Of a stretch of 64,000 nt of DNA, positions 15,282 through 63,595 are shown in pieces (positions within the stretch are counted from its first letter, which is position 1; every line of letters starts with the position of its first letter). The notes beneath the pieces were generated by a model, which ran no database searches, was not told where the DNA came from, and saw nothing but the letters and a program-made list of their open reading frames with translations. Made by a program: the position numbers and the translations under genes. The DNA comes from Eledone cirrhosa (Eukaryota): the NCBI GenBank assembly GCA_964016885.1, contig OZ024743.1, forward strand, positions 259,036,001-259,100,000. Direction: 5' to 3'.

Positions 15282-15350
<69 letters not shown>

Positions 15351-15358
<8 letters not shown>

Positions 15359-16027
15359 AGGAATAACCAAAGAGTGCTTAAAAATACATTGTTTTATTAG
15401 CTAACAGTGTTTCATCCATACCCTATTGCAGAAATCATCAGAGCCTATAAACAAGAGTATATCAATAGTTGCATGCTCCATCAAGCTGCGTCACCAGAAC
15501 AAGGTTAAAGGACCAGCAGGGGGTCCCAAGGCCAGCGCTATATAGATAAAGACACAATACATGACGCACATAATGTCATAAAATGTCATAAAAAATTACA
15601 TCAAAAATTACTTGCTACCTCTCACAACCTCCTTATCATCTATTGCACCATTTATCTGATAAATTTTTTATGTAATTTTTTATGACCTTTTATGACATTA
15701 TGTGCGTCATGTATTGTGTCTTTTTCTATATAGCGCTGGCCTTTGGACCCCGTGCTGGTCCTTTAACCTTGTTCTGGTAACGCAGCTTGATGGAGCATGC
15801 AACTATTGATATACTCTTGTTTATAGGCTCTGATGATTCCTGCCATAGGGTATGGATGAAACACTGTTAGCTAATAAAACAATGTATTTCTAAGCACTCT
15901 TTGGTTATTACTAAAATTATAACGGCTCTGTAGTATACTAGTTATCCTACAATGAGCTAAAACCACACTGTCATACCAAGGGCAATATATCTGCGTGTCT
16001 GGGCACATTGATATACTTGTCAATGAA

Positions 16028-16225: not shown

Positions 16226-16269
<44 letters not shown>

Positions 16270-16271
16270 TA

Positions 16272-16301
<30 letters not shown>

Positions 16302-16302
<1 letters not shown>

Positions 16303-16500
16303 GGAACCAGTAAGACCCCGACAGCTGAGCTCAAGCCGTTTCGACGGCTAATTCTGAATTAGCCAGAAATTAGCCGTCGAAACGGCTTGGGCTCAGCTGT
16401 CGGGGGTCTTACTGGTTCCTATTACCCACTCTACTACCTCAAGTATTGAGTACTTTGGTGCGTTATGGTCCACCTGGTTCCTTACCACATTTCCTTCGTT
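16302..16500 (+). repeat. ~120-bp palindrome plus tail; contains only the 3' half of an HHR
   Basis: 16302-16352 mirrors 16369-16421; GAA-ACGGCT..AGCTGT-C-GGGG; tail carries TATTGAGTAC, also seen at ~34571. Confidence 0.65.
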
Positions 16501-21560: not shown

Positions 21561-23509
21561 GTGAGGTTTTTTTTACAAAATGAAAAATAACCGAGGTGTC
21601 CTACACGAGTGAAAGTATAAAGAAAAAGAGATGAAATCGAAAATGCAACTGGAGTCTTATTTTAAAAAAAAATATATATATTTATTTGGTTCCTTTACCG
21701 GTTTCGCAGTTCTTCTGCTTTTCAAAAGCTGAGTTGAGATGGAGTGTCTGTGGTTTTTCTCACATCTGGTTGGTCTCTGAATGTTACTTGTTTTATATGG
21801 AAAAATGGCTCGAAATGCCAGCTTTTTCGAGAAGTAATTTGATTGGTTTGTCAATAATTATAATAAATTTCGCGCCAGTTCGCGTTACAATAGTTCTTCA
21901 AATAAGAGGGGGGGGGGGTTGTCACAGGTTGATTTTTCATATATGAGTGTTTGAATATTTATCAGAGAATTGGAAACGCTACTTGGATGATTGCCTCATT
22001 CTTTGGTCCCACACACTCGATCAACTGAAGGATTTCAAAAACTTAATAAACGGCATCAATAACCACATCCAATTCACAATGGAATACAGCCAAGATCAAC
22101 TCCCATTTCTGGACATCTTAATCTTAAAAAAAGACACAAATATCGAAACTGACATACACTACAAACCAACAGATTCCAAACAATATCTGCTATTCACCTC
22201 CAACCATCCAAAGCACACGAAGACGAACATTCCTTTTAACCTAGCAAGAAGAATTTGCACAATTGTCTCCAATTATGAAACGCGAAATAAAAGACTTCAA
22301 GAATTAAAGGAAATTCTACTCGAGAGAGAGTACCCACTATTACTAATAAATAATGGAATAGAAAGGGCTAAAGCAATAGGCATTGATGAATTACGGAAAC
22401 CGAAACAAATTCAAGGTACGTCCAATATTCTATCATATATCTCAACACACAACCCAAGAAATGCGGAAGCTTACAACACTATTCACAATAACATCTCACT
22501 ACTAAAATAAAACCCAAGAATGAAAAAAGCCCTTGAAACACACAAAATAATCAAAAGCAAGAGACAACCAAAATCACTGAAAACATTACTCACCAATGCC
22601 AAATTACCTACCACAAACCCACAACCAAGTATCAAAAAATGTGGTCGCTCTAATTGTGGAACCTGCACTCACCTCATTGAAGGCAACACGTATACATTTA
22701 AATCAGGACAAAATTTTACTGTAAAAAATCACTTCACTTGCTCATCAAAAAATCTACTTTATGCCATTAAATGTAAAGGATGCAATGAAGATTATATAGG
22801 ACAAACTAAACCCACACTCAGAAACAGAATGACAGTTCATCGCCAACAATTACGAGATCCAACCACGAGACAGATACCACTAAGTGCACATCTAGACATT
22901 TGCGCAAGTAATAAGACACCCAAATTCCAAGTCTTCCCATTTTACCTTTGCGCTAACAATACAACAGAACAAATGCGAATAAATAAGGAAAATATGTTTA
23001 TTCAAAAATATAGACCAACATTAAATAAGGTTTAATATACATTATGTCAACACCACAATATGACATACACACACACATAACCTTCTACTTTAGAAAATAA
23101 AAACCCGAACTAAATAAACCTTAACATACGTTTGCACTGACAATACAACAGCAAACACGAATAACTATGGAAAATATGTTCATTCAAAAATATTCCTACT
23201 AAAGGAATCACTTTCCTACACACACACATACACACACACAATATATATATATATATATATTCTCTTCATCTTAACATGCTAACCATACTCCCACACACAT
23301 AACACCCATACACACATATAACAACCCCCACACCCACAACTCCCTCCCCATTTCTACTAATAGAACCACTTTCCTACACACATATATATACACACACACA
23401 AAAAATATATATTCTCTCCATCTTAACATACTCGCACACACACACATAACACCCATATACACACACACACAACTCCCTCCCCCATTTCTACTAATAGAAT
23501 CATCTTCAA

Positions 23510-27494: not shown

Positions 27495-27571
<77 letters not shown>

Positions 27572-28338: not shown

Positions 28339-28394
<56 letters not shown>

Positions 28395-28635
28395 GTTAAA
28401 AAAATTAAGTTAAAAAAAAGTTAAAAAAATTACATCTACATATGCATACTGAAATACTAGTGTGTATATGAATACACACACGTATACATATGTATATGTA
28501 ACAAGTCTTTCACTGGTTGCTTTACTGTGAGCACCCAGCTATTCTGTATGTAAACACACAGACAAACCGGTTTTTAGAGTCATACTGGTTTTTGAGGGAA
28601 CACCTTCCCTCTATTCTCCAGAAAGCCAGACAAGG

Positions 28636-28680
28636 AATATTGAACTAGTTTCGTTGTTGTTACAACTCATCAGCAATATT
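28636..28680 (-). ncRNA. type I minimal hammerhead ribozyme, array copy 1
   Basis: AATATTG-CTGATGA-GTTG taacaa CAAC-GAA-ACTAGT-T-CAATATT; 7-bp stem I, 4-bp stem II, palindromic stem III. Confidence 0.88.
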
Positions 28681-29102
28681 TACCTATCTACCGGCCCTTC
28701 TGGAGAATTGTAAAAGCACATATCGTTATATGCTTTTTCTATGAAAATTAGTAGTGGGCAGACTAATTTGCATATAGTGTGAGTACGCACCGGTTCAGCG
28801 GAGACGATAAAAACAAATAACGAAACGAAATTAAATTTCGTTTCGTTTGTAACTCACTTTTGTATGACTGACGCTTAAACAATTAAGTTAAAAAAATTAC
28901 ATCTACATATGCATACTGAAATACTAGTGTGTATATGAATACACACACGTATACATATGTATATGTAACAAGTCTTTCACTGGTTGCTTTACTGTGAGCA
29001 CCCAGCTATTCTGTATGTAAACACTCAGACAAACCGGTTTTTAGAGTCATACTGGTTTTTGAGGGAACACCTTCCCTCTATTCTCCAGAAAGCCAGACAA
29101 GG

Positions 29103-29147
29103 AATATTGAACTAGTTTCGTTGTTGTTACAACTCATCAGCAATATT
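29103..29147 (-). ncRNA. type I minimal hammerhead ribozyme, array copy 2
   Basis: Identical to 28636-28680. Confidence 0.88.
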
Positions 29148-29569
29148 TACCTATCTACCGGCCCTTCTGGAGAATTGTAAAAGCACATATCGTTATATGC
29201 TTTTTCTATGAAAATTAGTAGTGGGCAGACTAATTTGCATAGAGTGTGAGTACGCACCGGTTCAGCGGAGACGATAAAAACAAATAACGAAACGAAATTA
29301 AATTTCGTTTCGTTTGTAACTCACTTTTGTATGACTGACGCTTAAACAATTAAGTTAAAAAAATTACATCTACATATGCATACTGAAATACTAGTGTGTA
29401 TATGAATACACACACGTATGCATATGTATATGTAACAAGTCTTTCACTGGTTGCTTTACTGTGAGCACCCAGCTATTCTGTATGTAAACACACAGACAAA
29501 CCGGTTTTTAGAGTCATACTGGTTTTTGAGGGAACACCTTCCCTCTATTCTCCAGAAAGCCAGACAAGG

Positions 29570-29614
29570 AATATTGAACTAGTTTCGTTGTTGTTACAAC
29601 TCATCAGCAATATT
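29570..29614 (-). ncRNA. type I minimal hammerhead ribozyme, array copy 3
   Basis: Identical to 28636-28680. Confidence 0.88.
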
Positions 29615-29983
29615 TACCTATCTACCGGCCCTTCTGGAGAATTGTAAAAGCACATATCGTTATATGCTTTTTCTATGAAAATTAGTAGTGGGCAGACTAA
29701 TTTGCATAGAGTGTGAGTACGCACCGGTTCAGCGGAGACGATAAAAACAAATAACGAAAAGAAATTAAATTTCGTTTCGTTTGTAACTCACTTTTGTATG
29801 ACTGACGCTTAAACAATTAAGTTAAAAAAATTACATCTACATATGCATACTGAAATACTAGTGTGTATATGAATACACACACGTATACATATGTATATGT
29901 AACAAGTCTTTCACTATATATATATATATAAATTAATAAAACAATGAATAAACAAAGAAACATTTCCTTATATTAAAAAAATT

Positions 29984-31513: not shown

Positions 31514-31551
<38 letters not shown>

Positions 31552-31563
31552 TTAATATAGATG

Positions 31564-31614
31564 AGATTCTACAGGACTAGAACTGTTTCATTCATTAGAA
31601 ATCATCAGGAATCT
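31564..31614 (-). ncRNA. type I HHR
   Basis: AGATTC-CTGATGA-tttc taat gaat-GAA-ACAG ttctagtc CTGT-A-GAATCT. Confidence 0.78.
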
Positions 31615-32339
31615 GGGCGTCAAAAAATAAATATGGTATTTATAGGTCTCTACAAGTGGTAGGAGAGGGTGGGGAGTGGGATGGGTGCAGGTCATTGGTT
31701 GATAGAAAAGGGAATTCATTAAAAGCTAATTCTACAAAGCTATAGTTAATTTTTATTTATATTTATTTATGTTTTTAGAGTAACAAAGGCAGACAGAATT
31801 CTATAAACAGGTTCCGGATGGCATACCATTCCTTGTCAATAAGTTTCTCTTAAGCTAACAGATGTCTATAAAATCAGTGGGGGGTCAGTCATGCTCGATA
31901 GAATTAAAGAAAAGGGAGATTCTTTAAAAGCTAAAGTCATTAAGGTTCTACTAAGTGACAAAGGTCTAGAGAATTCTGCAGACAGATTCAAAATACTGAG
32001 TGCATATCTTACTATTATCTTCGAACTTCTCTTAAACTAATCAACAATATGCCAAAAATCAACAGACACATTCACAAAAAAACAAAAAAACAAAAAAAAA
32101 CAGAAAAACAAAAAAGCAAAAAAACACACATAAAAAACAAAAAAACACACATACTCACTCACACACTTACGCGCAACCATAAACACACACACAAACACAT
32201 ATACACACATAAAAACACACACACATATATAAAAAAATATATAAATATATATAAATATATATTCATGTACACACACATACATACACACATACATACATAC
32301 ATATATAATACATATACACATATACATACACACACACAC

Positions 32340-34324: not shown

Positions 34325-34487
34325 TACACATATACACATATACAAACAAATATATACACATACAAGTAAATAGGTACTCAATAAATATACGCATATACGC
34401 AGGCACATAAAGACACCTCTACAGGCAGAAAATGTAGATACGAAAGAGGTACTCACATAACCAATTTTTTGATATTTTTTGATACCC

Positions 34488-34538
34488 AGATTCCTGATGA
34501 TTTCTAATGAATGAAACAGTTCTAGTCCTGTAGAATAT
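34488..34538 (+). ncRNA. type I HHR (same family as 31564; further copies 34935-34984 on - and a weakened 34995-35041 on +)
   Basis: AGATTC-CTGATGA-tttc taat gaat-GAA-ACAG..CTGT-A-GAAT. Confidence 0.75.
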
Positions 34539-34643
34539 CATCTATATTAAAACTGTTATACTCTGCTATGTATTGAGTACCTTACTTACTGTGGTTACCT
34601 CCGATTCAACCCGGAATTACGTATATATATATATATATATATA

Positions 34644-34785
34644 TATTAATAAAAGGAATTCCAACTTTGTCTGATTTACTCGTTTTATTTACAATCCCTT
34701 AAAATTTATAATGGTATTAGAATTTTAAAGGATTGTAAATAAAACGAGTAAATCAGACAAAGTTGGAATTCCTTTTATTAATATA
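34644..34785. repeat. near-perfect hairpin with ~60-bp arms at the centre of a larger inverted repeat
   Basis: ATTAATAAAAGGAATTCCAACTTTGTCTGATTTACTCG... and its reverse complement ending near 34783. Confidence 0.85.
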
Positions 34786-35043
34786 ATCTTCTATACACAA
34801 TCATACACATCCGTGTATATTTATCTATCTATCTACATATATATATATATACGTTATTCCGGGTTGAATCGGAGGTAACCACAGAAAGTAAGGTACTCAA
34901 TACATTGCAGAGTATAAAAGTTTTAATATAGATGAGATTCTACAAGACTAGAACTGTTTCATTCTTTAGAAATCATCAGGAATCATTAGTAATCTCCTGA
35001 TGATTTCTAAAGAATGAAACAGTTCTAGTACTGTAGAATCTCA

Positions 35044-35111
<68 letters not shown>

Positions 35112-40023: not shown

Positions 40024-40499
40024 GTATATATATATATGTATATATATATGTATGTATATATATATGTATATATATATGTATATGTATATATATATGTATA
40101 TATATATATATGTATATATATATATGTATATATATATGTATATATATATATGTATATGTATATATGTATATATATATATGTATATATATATATGTATATA
40201 TATATATGTATATATGTATATATATATATGTATATATATATATGTATATATATATATGTATATATATATATGTATATATATATATGTATATATATATATG
40301 TGTATATATATATATGTGTATATATATATATGTGTATATATATATATGTGTATATATATATATGTATATATATATATATGTATATTTATGTATATGTATA
40401 TTTATGTATATTTATGTATATGTATATTTATGTATATTTATGTATATATATATATATGTATATTTATGTATATGTATATATATATATATGTATATATAT
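39170..40499. repeat. compound (TA)n/(TATG)n microsatellite
   Basis: Direct inspection; source of spurious YI-rich ORFs. Confidence 0.95.
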
Positions 40500-41380
40500 C
40501 ATCATTGAACACAACAGAATATCTAATACACAACCACCCACTAATAGGCAAACAAAACGTAACACACTTGTACAGGCATCGCAGCCCACCAATAATGCCA
40601 AAGTTGCCCATGACAAGAATTGTAACTGCCACCTACCTGAAACCTGTCCATTACATAATGAGTGTATGCAGTCTAACCTGGTTTACCAATGCACAGTGGA
40701 ATCAGACAACCAGAAATGGTATTACATCGGAGAGACTGGGAATACATTTAAAGCCCGTTGGTATACACACCCTTACGCAATGAAACATTCCCAGCATCGT
40801 TATGTAACTACCCTTGCAAACAAGACCTGGCAACTGAGGGAAAGTAATCATCAATACACTCTGAAGTGGAAAAAATTATCGAACGCGCCCCCATATCGGA
40901 GTGGTATGAGAAGCTGTCGATTATGTGACCTTGAGCTGTTCCATATTTTGAGTTCGAAGAATAAGTTACTCAACAATAAAATCGAAAGATCAATTTATTG
41001 TAACCATATACTCGAAGAAAAGTTTTCGCACTACAAGTGCAAATCGAACCCTTAACCTCTTACTACCAACTGACCAACTGCATATACTTTATATCCTCTT
41101 ATTGTATCTAAACCCTTTTAATTACCCACAAAAACCAATACCTATATTCATTCCTCTTCTATTTCTTCGTTTTCTTCCTTCCTTCCCTCCCCTTTTTGGC
41201 TATCTTTACTTTTCTTCTTTCTCCCTCTTCTTTGCTTTTATTTTTGTCATTATTATCTTTATCTTTATTTTTTTATATATATATTTATCTCTTTATATCT
41301 CCTCCCCCTCTCTCTATATATATATCCATCCCACCCACTATAATCAATTTAATTCTCTTTAACTCACTACATTCCACGAC
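40500..41380 (+). mobile_element. Penelope-like element 3' fragment, GIY-YIG endonuclease (Naiad-like)
   Basis: CNCHLPETC (CxCx5C) PLHNEC...LVYQC...[15 protein letters not shown]...CRLCDLE; ORF ends 41055. Confidence 0.8.
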
Positions 41381-56086: not shown

Positions 56087-56250
56087 TATTTCCCGGCGCC
56101 GAAGACGCTCCATCCTCGAGGACGCACCCTAATTTTGACATCCAAAAATTTGAAAAAAATAATAAACAACCTTTGGCCTCCAGGACGCATGGGAGATTTT
56201 TTAGACTTATTTTAGGAAAAAAGTAGCGTCTTCGACGCCAGGAAATACGG
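56087..56250. mobile_element. pogo/Tc2-type MITE
   Basis: TIR TATTTCCCGGCGCCGAAGACGCT / AGCGTCTTCGACGCCAGGAAATACGG-TA. Confidence 0.7.
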
Positions 56251-56441
56251 TACATATTTCCATTAATCTCTTTGTTAACAATATCAGCCGGTCGCAACTC
56301 CTGGCTGAAGGAGTAACGTGAAATAAAGAATCTTGCTTAAAAATACAACAAACCACTCGATCCAGGAAGTGCATCTCCGACTTTATAATATTTAGTCCAA
56401 CACCATAACCAGCAGGCCACGTCCCTAAACAAATCAATATT

Positions 56442-56806
56442 TAGAATTAGGATTTAGCTTCAGGCATAGCTGTATACAGATATGTATTGGAATTTCGTAT
56501 TTCTATAGAAATACGGTATGTTTACAGGTAAACATTTAGAAAGCCGTAGCTATGCAAAACACCGGGGCTAATGCCCTCTGGTGGTGTCCAGCAGAAGCAA
56601 GGGGGACAATCGTCGATGCATTTCGAATCTAACTAGTTCTCATCAGAACGATCCCTCCCATACTTGCGACTGCTGGACTTGAAAACAGGCGAGAATATAT
56701 GGTTTTCTCGTCTATGTAAATGAGGTGATTAATCTCATTTGTATATAAAGCTGCTTAAGTTGGCTCAACTTATTATAGAATAGAATTAAGATTTAGCTTC
56801 ATGCAT
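56442..56806 (-). mobile_element. 339-bp HHR-containing monomer with direct terminal repeats: candidate retrozyme
   Basis: TAGAATTAgGATTTAGCTTCAgGCAT (56442) repeated at 56781; central HHR; hairpin order shared with the 467-bp unit. Confidence 0.78.
56609..56652 (-). ncRNA. type I minimal hammerhead ribozyme, AUC cleavage triplet
   Basis: ATCGTT-CTGATGA-GAA ctagttaga TTC-GAA-ATGCAT-C-GACGAT; enclosed by TCCAGCAG..GCAAG / CTTGC..CTGCTGGA. Confidence 0.85.
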
Positions 56807-57247
56807 CGAACGTTGTAGATCAGAAGTTAAGCAAGCTAATTATGGGATGTGGTTTCAATCTCTACTTAAAAATTTCATTTGGTCTCTGATTCTTACATGG
56901 GTTAAAGGCTATGTTGTGGTATTAGTAACTGGAAAATTCCCATCGACGAGCATGCACTGACTTTCAATCAACAATATTTAATTCATAAAGCTTTCTTAGA
57001 ATCTAGGCTTTATAGTTCAAACAGCCGCGAAGCAATGTGACCGATGGTGTAGGACAGAACAAAGGAGAGACACAAAATAAGAAACCAGTCACTGAGAAGT
57101 CATAGAATATGTGACGAAAGAGCTTTGACAATATATAAACAACTACCCGGTTATTGAACCAACCAACCGGAAATTTATAATAATAAATTGAAGTGAAAAC
57201 CAACAGGTGTATATGTTTTTATTGGCAGCATGACCGGCCCAAAGTAT

Positions 57248-57288
<41 letters not shown>

Positions 57289-57293
<5 letters not shown>

Positions 57294-57654
57294 ACAGGGA
57301 GAAAAAGACGATTAATAGGAAGAAAAATTTTTTTTTTTCCTTTTTATTTTTTTCTCTCTTTTTTTCTGGGTTAGAAAATGATTAAAACGAAATATTTTAC
57401 TTTGTGTGAAGTGTTAAGTTATTAGTTGATTTATTTATTTAAAACAATGGCATTTATTTATTTATTTATATATTTAATAATTGTCTATTACCGGTTTCAG
57501 CATTTTAAATAAATAAATAAATCAAGTAATACCTTAACACTTCACACAAAGTAAAATATTTCGTTTTAATCATTTTCTAACCCAGAAAAAAGAGAGAAAA
57601 AAATCAAAAGGAAAAAAAAAATTTTTCTTCCTAATAATCGTCTTTTTCTCCCTG

Positions 57655-57660
<6 letters not shown>
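57289..57660. mobile_element. fold-back element with ~160-bp arms and an HHR 3'-half remnant in the loop
   Basis: 57290-57445 is the inverse of 57503-57659; TACCGGTTTC (reverse GAAACCGGTA) at 57489-57498; (TA)n flanks. Confidence 0.75.
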
Positions 57661-57685
<25 letters not shown>

Positions 57686-57711
57686 CCTAACTCGTGTGCT
57701 TCCTCTCCACA

Positions 57712-57745
<34 letters not shown>

Positions 57746-60700
57746 GGCGACCTACGTAGTAAATCGTATCATCGTGAGCTCCGCAAAGGTTTGTTATTTT
57801 CAGTTGTTTAAAATTGCCATTCATGGAAATTTTTTATTGTTAACTGTATATAAGTGCACATACTTTGTTATCTGAAAAGGACACCCAAAAAGATTGGGGC
57901 CTTGAGCCCAAAATTTAAACTTTTATAATTATCAAACAAAAAGTTTTCTTTGAAAAATCATGGCTGACTCAGGGTCACTCCTTTCTCACAAACTAACACC
58001 TCACACCGACACCACCATTGTAATTATTACTACGTTTGCCAACACTAAAAATATAAGCAGTAGCAATATTTTAAATTTGTCTCAGGCAGACATTCATTTC
58101 CCGCCATTACCAATGACTGATGTGTTAAAGCCGCCACCACCACCACCACCACCGCGACAACCAACACCCCTACTACCACCGCGACAACAGAAACAAAAGA
58201 AAAAAATAAATTAACTCGTGATATCGAAATGAATTCAACCAAAATGAACTCTTCCACACCGAACACCACTGACGCCACCACCACCACAACTGAAACTAAA
58301 ATTAATAATAACAAAAATAACGATAATAACAACAGCAACAATGACATTAAGAAAACCACCCTGAGTTTTGCCAGAGTAGCAAAACAGTGCGAAGCATTTC
58401 AGGTAACTCAGGAGGAATTAAAGAAGCAAAAAAATGGGAAAGAAAGATGGGTACAGGGTCAGCCCCCCCCCCCCCAATAACAAAATGGAACATCGGCACC
58501 TATGCACCGTGTCTTATCGAGCAATTAATATAAAATCGCGCCGAGTGGAACGGGCATCCGAGTCCCAAATCCAAAAAGCTTTGGGACATGTGTGGGCAAA
58601 AAAACCCCACATCAGACGTGGGCAGAAGTATGGAACCGTGGACGTGTTCTTTGAAACAGCACAGGAGGCTAGAGAATACTCCATGGCCCCATTAAGAAGT
58701 GACGACTTCACACTCGTCGCAAGCTATTGTGGCCAGAGACTCGTAAAGATCAGGGTCACCCACGTTCCACCGGCCATCGAAATTCCCTGGCTAATAGCTG
58801 CCGTCCTCGCCAGCATCGAAGCCAGCACCAAGATAATCGAAATAGCGAAAGAATAGCAGGAGAACTGTCCGGATCTGGGATGGAGCTCCTGATCCAAGTG
58901 GACCAAAATAGCATTGAGGAGATCCCAGAGGTAATAGACCTCACTGACGGCGTAATTGTCGAGCTCAGAAAGCCTAGGTGTGTCGTTTGTGGTGAAGGAA
59001 CCCACCTAAGGGCTTTCTGCCCTCAGGCTAAAAGGTTGAGGCCACCTCTCCTACCCACCCCAGTGACTCAACCATCAACACCACCAGCAGCAGAGATGGC
59101 AGCAACAACTGTAGCAGCAACAACAGAAGCAACTGTAACAGCAACAACCTCAGCAACAGTAGCAAAACCAACACCACCACCACCCAACGCGCCAGAACTA
59201 GCAGTAGCGCCTACACCATCCACCACGCCACAACCAAAACTAACGCTTGTGGAGGATTTTCCACTCCCCGGCCTATCACAACTGGAGACAGATTGTGACG
59301 ACGAGGAGTAGGAAACGGTATCAGGAAAAAAGAAAAAAAGAAACCAAAAAAGAAAAAATTCTCTTCCTTCCCCCTCCAAAAACAAAATACAGAGGGAAAC
59401 AAATAAACTATCAAACAAAAAAATTAGGACAGATATGCCACCATCCACTCCAGCATCACCAACCCCATCACTCTAAACACCAACACCATCACCATCATTA
59501 ACCCCAACACCACCATCAGCTACACCACAAAAGTCACCAAAAAGCGAAACAGAAACAGACCCATAACAAACGCAAACAAAACAAAACAACCAAAACGATA
59601 CACACTACACAGCATTAAATTTGAACAACAACCAATTATTACACTACATCTAACACAACACCAGCATCACAGAAAAAGACTACACAACAACCCAAAAGTT
59701 CACACCACCTCCACACATACAAATCACTCGCATCACACAGAAAACGTACATGACACTAAAACAAAAATTCCCCAAAGACATCGGAGACTTCCGACAAGCA
59801 CTCTCCAGGAGGATTTATAAGGACATCCTTCCTGAGGAGGCCACAAGCAGTGAAAAGGATGGAGAAACCATCCTTCCTCTACGGAAAGTACGGTAAGTGG
59901 TCTTTCCCATCTTTTCCACTCCATTTCAACATGACCTCACTCAGAATAGGCAGCATAAATGCGCGTGGCTTGGGTTCGTCAAGGAAGCAGGGTCACCTGC
60001 TCAACGACCTCAGGTCACTAAACATAGATGTAGTGGCCACCAGCGAGACCAGAATCTCCGAAGCACGGGCCTTCGCACCGATCTTCGGCGGCTACGATGT
60101 GTACGCATCTCCCAGCCGTCAGGGATCGGAGAGAGGAGTTGCTGTGCTTTTTCGGAGAGGTTTGGATCTCGTCATACGGGCCATCTTCCTGGACCCAGAA
60201 GGTAAGTTGGTGGTGCTGGACGTGACCAGCGGAGACGGGCAAGCTTTCAGGCTAGTAGCCGTCTATGCCCCGACAGGAGCAGGGCGGCCTGATTTCTTCC
60301 AGCATCTGGAGACCTTTCTTGGACCGTCCCGCTCTTTAGTGTTAGTGGGCGACTGGAACGGGATATTAGATGCACGCTGGGACTGTGTGGGATTAGCGGA
60401 TAGGAGAGGAGGGTGCAAGAGTCTCACCAACCTGCTCAGGCGTTTTGAACTGTCTGACAGGTACCGATTGGATTTCCCGAATGTGCCAATGTGGACTTGG
60501 ACAAATCGCTTCGGGTCATCCAGATCATATCTAGATAGAGTATTTTGTAGGGAAATAGATAGGTCTAGCATAAGCTGTCTACAATTCAAGATAGTCAGCT
60601 ACACGGACCACAAATTCGTGATCTGTGTGCTTGACTTAGATAGGCTTCATGGACGAGGACCCGGCTACTGGAAGCTAAATGCGTCCTTACCAGCGCGTAA

Positions 60701-63593
60701 GGCCTACAGAGACCGGATTAGCGAACTAGTTAAGCGGGCGTTGACGGGGGCCATCGTCAACAACAAGTGGTGGTTTGCTCTGAAAAGAGCGATTAGAATA
60801 GAATCCATTAGGTTTAGTAAGGCTTTAGCAATAGAGAAAAATAGAGCAGAGGGAGAACTAGTTAAAAAATTAGACGAGGCGCTTAGCAAAGGCATCGCGA
60901 CCGACGTGCTTGCGGCGAAATTGGCCCTTGACCAATTCTTCAATGCAAAGCACGAAGGCTGCGTTGTCAGAGCTAGGGGGCGTGCTCTCAGACACGAGGG
61001 GACGAAAACCGTTCAATGGGCCCGAGTGGCGGAGGCGCGTCGTGGCAACAAAGCCACGATCCGGTCTTTGGTGGACCACGACGGGCGCATGCTACTCGAT
61101 CCCGGGCAAATGTGTAAAGCTTTTCAGCGACACTTCGCTCAGCTGTTCGGGGGCAGCAGTGGGCCGGGTTGAGGGATGGACTTTAGTGTCTACTTCGACG
61201 GACTGCCGCGGCTCTCGCCACTGAGGCGGAGTGTTACGAAAAGCCGATAACAGCCGCTGAAGTACGGGAGGCAATGACTGACTGCACAAGGAGTAAATCG
61301 CCTGGTTTGGATGGTCTGCCCTATGAACTTTACGTACAAATGCCAGACTTGTTCGGAGGCCTCTTGGCGGACGTCTACTGCAACTGGAAACAGAACGGGA
61401 GAATTCCCAGCTCTGTGAGCCGAGGAGCGGTGGCGCTGCTGAGAAAGGATCCGAACAAGGGGGATAACATAGATAATTTTAGGCCCATAACTCTGCTAAA
61501 CACAGAGTTCAAGATTTTGGCCTAGGTGCTAGCAAAGAGGTTGGCGCTTGTCGTTGGTGGTCTGGTGGGAGAGGCACGGGCATGCGCCATTCCCGACAGA
61601 TCCATCCACGACAACCTCCACCTCATGCGATACATCGTAGAGAGGGTAGCTAGGGAACCTGGCACGGGTGGGTCTTTGATCAATTTAGATCAGTCGAAAG
61701 CCTTCGATAGGGTCGACCATCGTTACCTAACGGCAGTCCTGAGGGCGGCTGGCTTTGGGCCCGTCTTCAGAGGCTGGATCGCTGCCATGCACAGCGACAT
61801 CTGCTCTGTAGTGAGAGTGAACGGTCACCTTTCGGAACCGTTCAACATCATGCGCTCGGTCCGCCAAGGATGTCCCCTCTCGTCCCTATTGTACGTATTG
61901 ACTCTCGAGCCATTACTGCACAAACTGGAGACGTTGAGGGGGGTCCCGCGCGAACTAGGATGCGGAAGATCCGTGTCAGCATATGCCGACGATGTCACCG
62001 TAGTGGTGTCGAACGCCAAACACATCGAGGCGATAGGCACTACACTAAGAGAATACGAAGCGGTGACAGGAGCAATGATCAACCAGGAAAAGTCAGTGGG
62101 CCTGCAGCTCGGCACCTGGAGAGGCAGGTCCATGCCGTCCAACAGCGTCGTCGGGCGCTGGACGGACGGACCGGTTAAATTGCTAGGGGTCTGGTTCGGT
62201 CCAGACCTCCAGACGGACAAAAACTGGGACGAGGTGACGAGCAGGGTGGCTTCTCTCACCCAGAAATGGGCCGAGAGGAAGCTATCCCTGAAAGGTCGAG
62301 CGGAGGTGGCGAATGCGTACATCGCATCCGTCATCTACTACCGCCTGACCGTCGTACCTTGTCCTAAGCCCCGCCTGACTGCGCTGGAGCGTTTGCTCTT
62401 TCGCTTCTTGTGGAAGGGACGCGCTCCGATGGTCAGGCGGTCCATCTGCTGTCAACACCCGCTACGTGGAGGGCTGGGCATGCCGTGGCTGATGATGCGC
62501 AGACACGCGCTCAGGCTACGACATCTCCACCTCTTCCTCGACGGTGATCAGGTGTGGTCGCCGTTTGCAAGACACGTTTTTCCCCAGCTCGTCTCCTTGA
62601 CGGAGCTGCAGTCCTGGGTCAAGCGAAGACCCAGAGGGAGCGCTTGGAGACTGGAATGTCTTCAGGCGCTCACAGCCCTCGGCCAATCGGGCAATGTGAT
62701 CGGTGGAAACTCCACCTTGGCGTTCTATAGGGGATTAGTGGAGGGGAAGAGCGACGACGTACTTGGAGAAACTCTAGGCGTCGACGAAAATCAACTAGCC
62801 AATCTCTTCGGAAGGACTTTCGGGCCGGGGCCTATGGACAACTTCCAGAAATCCCTGGCCTGGCAGTGCTACCGAGGAGCTTTGCCAGTTCGGGATAAAC
62901 TCTACAGGCATGGAGGTGCCGTCAGCCGGGCATGTCCGAGATGCGCGCAGGGCGACGAAACCGTCATGCACGCACTCGTCCAGTGTCCGAGCATTGCTGA
63001 CTTGTGGGTTTATGTCGAACACCTGCTGTCACGTGTAGGACGGATCCAGCTATCAGCTGAGTCCATCGTGAGGATTGCCCCGCCCCCTTCCTTTAGCCTG
63101 GAAGGGCAGGCAGTTTTTATCTGTCTGGTGGCCATGGCGAAAGAGATAGTATGGTGGACACGTTTGAAAGGGCTGAAAACGAGCACTTACCTCTTCGGTG
63201 ATGCCCTGATTAACTTTTTCAAATTTCATTTGAAAAGGAAAATCAGGGTAGAGAGGGAAGTGCTCTCTTCCCAGCATTTTGTTGAAAGATGGGTGAGAGA
63301 AGCAAGTATGGCCCGAATGAATGGGCCTTCTCTGAGTATGTGTCTGTAAATTAAAGGTGGAAAACTGGGAGAGGGCACTTGCCCTGGTGGTCAGGGCCAC
63401 TGTGGTCTTTTAATGGGCTTTCTCCACAAATGTCCCTTGGAAGTCTCCCCCCTATTGGGGAATTTTTCTTTGTTATTTTATTTCAACCTCTGTTTTTTTT
63501 TACACGCAGAAATGCCCATTTGTACCGTCCTGTATTGTCCTGTACTGTCCTTAATGTCTACTTTACGTGAACCCTTGTGGTTAATAAAGAAAA

Positions 63594-63595
<2 letters not shown>
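57746..63595 (+). mobile_element. near-full-length L1/Tx1-clade non-LTR retrotransposon, mildly disrupted, inserted in (ATT)n
   Basis: ORF1 pieces 58229-59311 with CX2CX4HX4C knuckle; ORF2 from ATG 59931: APE (SINARGL, GDWN, YLDR, TDH), RT (KSPGLDG, DQSKAFDRV, QGCPLS, YADD), C-terminal CPRC..H..C; stops at 61172 and 61525; AATAAA at ~63583. Confidence 0.93.

Follow-up and report, generated by a model that had tools for sequence, protein, structure and literature searches.

Two related families of hammerhead-bearing repeats in Eledone cirrhosa, probably non-LTR retrozymes, share a conserved hairpin upstream of the ribozyme motif

The window analyzed here, 64,000 nucleotides of Eledone cirrhosa contig OZ024743.1, contains members of two families of short repeats that carry a hammerhead motif. 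Family B is represented by a single insertion of 365 bases and family A by a tandem array (Table 1). The units measure 339 bp (B) and 467 bp (A), with GC contents of 0.44 and 0.38, respectively, in the modelled parts. The longest ATG-initiated reading frame was 26 amino acids when the unit was read as a concatemer, and no larger one was found in either unit. The two ends of B repeat each other at 24 of 26 positions with a spacing of 339 bp, which bears out a first-pass annotation of this DNA that had described 26-bp direct ends, a period of 339, and about a 1.1-mer. No target site duplication flanks B, the longest word common to both flanks being 4 nt. The four hairpins and stems of that annotation were all found in the sequence, at the places claimed and in the same order in both units. 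The hammerheads of both units, however, lie on the minus strand, and thus the order of parts in the RNA is the reverse of the order first given. When folded as a linear molecule, B was more stable than its dinucleotide shuffles on either strand (z of -5.3 for the plus strand and -5.4 for the minus strand; 0 of 100 shuffles equally stable). With the minus strand folded as a circle, z was -6.1 in B, and the 467-bp unit reached -9.3.

Table 1. Coordinates of the two repeat families in the window and of the parts of unit B; 3' and 5' refer to the hammerhead sense.
Feature	Position	Strand	Remarks
Family A, 3.2 tandem copies of the 467-bp unit	28418..29915	-	99% match; between (TA)n tracts
Family A hammerhead cores	28673, 29140, 29607	-	Stem III is a palindrome; cleavage predicted after GUU
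Family A perfect octamers	28766, 29233, 29700	-	123 nt from the cut site
Insertion B, whole	56442..56806	-	Non-coding 1.08-mer made of a 339-bp unit and its 26-bp terminal redundancy
26-bp redundancy, 3' copy	56442..56467	-	56442 is a start point common with other copies
Predicted 3' multibranch domain, three AT-rich hairpins	56464..56555	-	Homology to the 467-bp unit undetectable (273/2000 shuffles match the score)
P4, GC hairpin 3' of the long stem	56560..56583	-	
P3, long stem with UCCAG/CUGGA base, presents the hammerhead	56586..56678	-	Outer 9 pairs compared with unit A: 6 same, 2 compensatory, 1 single-sided
Type I hammerhead motif	56608..56653	-	Stem-and-core scan, covariation
Parts of the B hammerhead	Stem I 56647-53/56608-14; core CUGAUGA 56640-46; stem II 56625-39; GAAA 56621-24; stem III palindrome 56616-21		
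P2, short hairpin	56688..56712	-	Position common with unit A, pairing register not
P1, sequence-conserved imperfect inverted repeat	56713..56745	-	Octamer position 56737-56744
5' small hairpin	56756..56772	-	1-2 extra pairs in other copies
26-bp redundancy, 5' copy	56781..56806	-	Family records continue to 56794, 56801

Each unit carries a type I hammerhead of the dimer type, in which stem I has 7 bp and stem III is a palindrome of 6 nt. The features expected of type I are present: a CUGANGA...GAAA core, stems I to III, a NUH cut site, and an open stem I. Cleavage of B is predicted after AUC, between positions 56615 and 56614. Stem II has 3 bp in the window copy, and most other copies have 4 bp. 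When both strands of the window were scanned for stems and core, a 7-bp stem I together with a 6-nt stem III palindrome occurred only in the B core (56646) and the three A cores; stem I of the remaining candidates was 4 to 5 bp. An Rfam scan of the window gave 0 matches at the gathering threshold. The stem III palindromes could form 6-bp dimer duplexes with a computed stability of approximately -4.7 kcal/mol, and a palindromic stem III dimer arrangement has been described for metazoan type I hammerheads (PMC4209133). The motif is predicted to self-cleave, but such predictions are often not borne out in vitro: only one of nine predicted dimers cleaved in the experiments described by Li, Clavereau & Pollet (bioRxiv 10.64898/2026.07.22.740005).

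Other copies of family B were sought in contigs from four of seven public sequencing runs, aligned on positions 56100-57100 at 80% likeness; two of the runs, X1 and X3, represent one sample. Summed contig depth, which is not a copy number, was 15,000 to 150,000 in the bins covering 56440-56779 and 8,436 in the last bin. Outside the element, it was 6.7 on the right and 27 to 85 on the left, and at this locus depth dropped approximately 1,000-fold left of 56442. Family B is very large, present in high copy, and bounded exactly as the first-pass annotation said, and the claim that this is not a one-off repeat stands, as contig depth is thousands of times that of the flank. Relatives of B were also found in a run labelled as a second organism (16 records in total, with 8 pieces listed). 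Among the records listed, X1 records 1 and 2 and X4 record 18 start exactly at 56442, and X4 record 19 starts at 56443. The family has a fixed 3' end at 56442. We note that an AATTAAG-like word occurs near the 3' ends of both families (56442/56781 in B); it is possibly a common start for reverse transcription, and chance occurrence in AT-rich DNA is possible. The 3' end of array A (28389-28427) shows three short reiterations of its first bases beside (TA)n, reminiscent of a stutter.

Among the joints listed for X1, two are head to tail: one runs from 56798 to 56465 with 5 letters between (period 339), and the other runs from 56800 to 56471 (period approximately 335). Their depths are 14 and 11, and only 10 of 12,118 X1 records fit two places. 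With so few head-to-tail joints listed, and at such low depth, the majority of B copies appear to be monomers or truncated fragments. Because other copies begin at 56442, overrun to 56794 and 56801, and rejoin at 56465 and 56471, the 26 bp are element sequence at both ends. Moreover, depth at 56786 was 10,818, compared to 6.7 in the right flank. A target site duplication was rejected as the source of the 26 bp, as the 26-mer is at family depth on both ends and sits at tandem joints, and no such duplication flanks the insertion; the direct ends are a terminal redundancy of the element. Four of the 15 X1 joints listed, and one in X4, connect opposite strands inside the unit. They resemble the inverted 5'-truncated copies described for Penelope-like elements (PLEs) (PMC8557442), and they could be assembly artefacts of hairpin-rich DNA. 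A MITE-like element with 23-bp terminal inverted repeats lies nearby at 56087-56247 and has very high depth in the same contig alignment.

Of 23 differences listed inside the element, the majority ones sit in loops or repair pairs, save that at 56714, which improves P2 and breaks one P1 pair. Majority letters convert C.A to C-G in stem II (the fourth pair) and U.G to C-G in stem I, add pairs to P2 and to the 5' hairpin, and restore a perfect octamer at 56742. Among the listed differences, one carried by a minority in X1 (56651 A>G) would disrupt stem I if no hidden change in the partner offsets it. Because the majority letters of other copies repair its pairs, the window copy is a decayed member. 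Degenerate pattern scans for homologs elsewhere matched 2 loci in viruses, 28 in metagenomes, and 21 in prokaryote genomes; the upstream hairpin and a hammerhead occurred together in none of them, and all were judged to be chance matches.

On sequence comparison, units A and B are homologous. They run collinear over the stretch between the P1 hairpin and the long stem's base, with near-identical spacing and 78 of 157 positions identical, and the "little primary identity" of the first-pass annotation was too weak a statement. Six anchor words common to both units occur at offsets of 27503 to 27506, that is, within 3 nt over 150 nt, and the spacing P1-34-UCCAG-26-core is found in both. Aligned locally over the stretch between the shared hairpin and the core, the units scored 40, compared to 24 ± 3 in shuffles, of which 1 in 1,000 reached 40. 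The part upstream of the hammerhead alone scored 36, which was reached by 2 of 2,000 shuffles and 5 of 2,894 random segments of the window, and similarity in the downstream part was not significant (Table 1). Identity varied by segment: 21 of 25 positions in the P1 arms, 13 of 18 in the outer stem of P3, all 11 in the core, 10 of 28 in P2, and 6 of 27 in inner P3, with 57 of 132 in the aligned block beyond the P1 arms. P2 had been put forward as a short hairpin common to both units, and its position is indeed shared, but its pairing register is not.

Pair counts were made without the MAFFT alignment of the units, which was out of register 3' of the core. In the hammerhead, 14 pairs could be compared: 5 were the same in A and B, 7 were compensatory, 1 was single-sided, and 1 was broken. 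Pairing was kept in eight of the nine changed pairs (permutation p=0.003) and in all nine when the majority letters of other copies were used (p=0.0005). The 27 pairs outside the hammerhead, taken from A's own fold, comprised 16 same, 3 compensatory, 1 single-sided, and 7 broken, the broken ones falling mostly at helix ends; changed pairs were kept in 4 of 11 cases (permutation p=0.42), a comparison of two families that has little power. The first-pass annotation had inferred an old family under structural constraint and proposed a search for covariation beyond the hammerhead. With two families, significant covariation was confined to the hammerhead, and constraint on structure outside it was not borne out. 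The change from TAG/CTA to GAG/CTC to which that annotation pointed is real, but it is the sole compensatory change among the hairpin's 14 pairs. What was kept outside the hammerhead is sequence and spacing more than covariation. G.U pairs were divided 5 versus 6 between the strands, which is uninformative.

Covariance models derived from A alone, using its three copies, and then run against the window recovered B end to end: the full structure gave 28.9 bits (E 6.5e-6), the pairs outside the hammerhead by themselves 18.4 bits, and the sequence without pairs 7.7 bits (E 0.16). With A-derived models, however, a palindrome at 16247-16424 that is unrelated scored 34.4 and 25.2 bits, and TA tracts scored up to 23. 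Thus, the score of B is not proof of covariation outside the hammerhead, as equal or higher scores are obtained by unrelated palindromes and TA tracts. The top non-self match, at 16302-16424, is a near-perfect GC-rich palindrome of approximately 120 bp with nested internal hairpins, bordering a TA tract.

Two families at approximately 50% identity show what is kept beyond the ribozyme, and P1 is the best-conserved non-catalytic part. The 5' arm of P1, in the hammerhead sense, contains the octamer ATGCAAAT, which we take to be of the POU type. The octamer has one mismatch in the window copy of B, is perfect in approximately 98% of summed X1 contig depth at 56742, and is perfect in A. It lies 122 nt from the cut site in B and 123 nt in A. 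Four exact octamers occur elsewhere in the window, and we estimate the chance of one at approximately 3% per unit, for a feature noticed post hoc. Because P1 is kept in sequence and spacing without covariation, we infer that it is a signal read by a protein, and it may be a promoter or an enzyme recognition signal upstream of the ribozyme. P1 is a short, mutable target for open questions about retrozyme transcription and about recognition by the mobilizing PLE protein.

A and B are probably two families of animal non-LTR retrozymes, a known class of elements that PLEs likely move. The units are short and non-coding, with GC below 50% and one type I hammerhead each. A is organized in 3.2 tandem copies, and B is a monomer at this locus with two head-to-tail joints elsewhere among the joints listed. 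B is multicopy and dispersed, and the window contains a PLE GIY-YIG fragment at 22511-23035 (PF01541, E 4e-7). As described in PMC7229834 and bioRxiv 10.64898/2026.07.22.740005, animal non-LTR retrozymes resemble A and B in being non-coding units, tandem or monomeric, some hundreds of bp long, with GC below 50%, and in having one type I hammerhead per unit, a weak palindromic helix III, and a highly self-paired predicted circle. In those descriptions an LTR is not seen, PLEs co-occur, and monomer derivatives are known. The 467 bp of A is at the upper edge of the 150 to 450 bp given in PMC7229834, and a range of 51 to 972 bp is given in bioRxiv 10.64898/2026.07.22.740005. What sets A and B apart from animal retrozymes as described there is that a hairpin conserved in sequence and a UCCAG/CUGGA stem are common to both, at a fixed distance from the core. 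Newt satellite 2, Dolichopoda pDo500, and Schistosoma Sm-alpha are tandem satellites with dimer-type hammerheads and compensatory stem changes, and cricket satellites show the same hammerhead-centered conservation as A and B (PMC2837043). B, unlike the first three, is mostly dispersed. Literature searches on hammerhead, cephalopod, and Penelope and on retrozyme, promoter, and octamer returned no description of the family or of a shared module; the supplement of PMC7229834 may list the family, and the available text of PMC13282606 does not mention "ribozyme." The B family is apparently undescribed for this lineage, although the retrozyme class itself is known.

How such elements might spread can be drawn from the cycle of transcription, cleavage, ligation, and PLE copying described in PMC7229834, PMC7761336, and bioRxiv 10.64898/2026.07.22.740005. 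Tandem masters would be transcribed, paired hammerheads would cut monomers from the tandem transcripts through dimeric self-cleavage via the palindromic stem III, and a host ligase would close the B monomer into a 339-nt circle. A PLE reverse transcriptase/endonuclease would likely copy the circle into cDNA longer than a single unit and reinsert it. Reverse transcription would start at the fixed site 56442 and overrun the unit by 26 nt, giving the 1.08-mer, and array A would represent 3.2 turns of a circle placed in a (TA)n tract. Unit size, low GC, a helix III that is weak and palindromic, and cDNA exceeding one unit fit the accounts in PMC7229834, PMC7761336, PMC4209133, and bioRxiv 10.64898/2026.07.22.740005. 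The features that we compare with PLE-type insertion are the fixed 3' end at 56442, the extra 26 bp, the opposite-strand joints (possible artefacts), and the TA flanks of A. For an anole element, the PLE protein has been shown to start at fixed internal sites and to leave a tail of 30 to 40 bp (PMC11167929). We infer the mobilizing partner, since no sequence was found to link either unit to a PLE reading frame in the window and no loose ends fall at 56442 among those listed. The window copy of B, with only one hammerhead and a weakened stem II in it, is likely a dead-end monomer that probably cannot release a circle. Cleavage, expression, and circles are predictions of the retrozyme reading, made from sequence.

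Alternatively, B might be a solo or truncated pseudo-LTR, with tail, of an autonomous PLE. In that case a partial tandem would have left the 26 bp as its PLE "tail," and A would be a pseudo-LTR amplified locally as a minisatellite with no circular RNA stage. PLE pseudo-LTRs as described in PMC4209133, PMC11167929, and PMC8557442 do have type I hammerheads, tails of 30 to 40 bp, a 3' end that is fixed and carries a short additional stretch, truncated copies in inverted orientation, and AT-rich or (TA)n targets, and 24 of 57 Xenopus retrozyme families match transposable elements, nearly all at PLE termini (bioRxiv 10.64898/2026.07.22.740005). Moreover, tandem joints of B are few and inversions several among the joints listed, and PLE fragments are present in the window. 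We nonetheless consider this origin improbable. The joints return to the unit start at approximately 339 with no reading frame between, depth collapses left of 56442 at this locus, and no RT-GIY-YIG reading frame was found beside the A or the B locus in the window. Neither unit has a reading frame longer than 26 amino acids, whereas the PAc hammerhead overlaps the start of one (PMC11167929), and the 6-nt stem III palindrome and 7-bp stem I are fuller than the minimal pseudo-LTR form (PMC4209133). Unit-length head-to-tail repeats also set A and B apart from PLE pseudo-LTRs as described. Far less probable still, and already largely refuted, is the idea that the units are unrelated beyond the hammerhead, their hairpin order being coincidental in a genome rich in palindromes and the 26 bp being a target site duplication. 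It could draw on the scores of up to 34 bits that unrelated palindromes and TA tracts obtain with an A-derived model and on the nonsignificant covariation outside the hammerhead, but the near-constant anchor offsets, the rarity of comparable upstream similarity in shuffles, and the position of the 26-mer at both ends and at tandem joints argue against it.

Perhaps P1 works as DNA, a reading that refines the retrozyme explanation and does not exclude it. The inverted octamer/POU pair would be an internal promoter or enhancer of the snRNA type, by which the elements would drive their own transcription. Newt satellite 2, likened to A and B by description and not by sequence, is cited with an internal snRNA-type Pol II promoter (PMC2220036), and octamers are parts of the DSE in human snRNA promoters (PMC3499247). 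The P1 arms are far better conserved than the remaining aligned block, and the octamer, without mismatch in A and in the majority of other B copies, is nearly constant in its distance from the cut and scarce elsewhere in the window. The pair opposite the octamer is mismatched on the hammerhead strand in both families. We regard a DNA role as rather doubtful, however. The octamer was noticed post hoc in an AT-rich genome, no PSE was identified, and a literature search for the extended POU consensus gave primer matches only and no confirmation. Moreover, A forms 12 of the 14 pairs, and a hairpin recognized as RNA by a PLE protein would look alike. We speculate, somewhat less doubtfully but still tentatively, that retrozymes of this lineage carry a conserved cis-module beyond the ribozyme, made of the inverted octamer/POU pair 122 to 123 nt upstream of the cut and the UCCAG/CUGGA clamp, and acting either as their own snRNA-type promoter or as a handle for the Penelope reverse transcriptase. 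If true, the module would be the conserved signal that metazoan retrozymes lack according to a review (PMC7761336), which describes them as without a conserved motif pointing to a mobilizer and seemingly without promoters.

The window also contains other repeats and remnants. The 5'-truncated end of a Penelope-type reading frame with one stop occupies 21947-23035 and includes the GIY-YIG domain; its reverse transcriptase part had no Pfam match, and no hammerhead downstream of it passed. A reading frame remnant at 40498-41055, after a long TA tract, looks by eye like the end of a PLE endonuclease and had no Pfam match. A foldback of approximately 590 bp beside (TA)n (15345-15930) has one hammerhead-like core word per arm (15441 minus, 15830 plus); it failed the type I stem test and may be an inverted pair of PLE ends. 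Another CUGAUGA...GAAA word occurs in four copies, arranged as inversions, beside (TA)n at 31540-31620 and 34480-35050 (31608 minus, 34494 plus, 34979 minus, and 34997 plus), a candidate third small family that is hammerhead-like by core word. To the right of insertion B, a foldback with 117-nt arms lies between (TA)n tracts at 57245-57690, and a nearly intact LINE ORF2 at 59760-63349 has Pfam endonuclease, RT, and zf-RVT domains and an (ATT)n tail at 63595.
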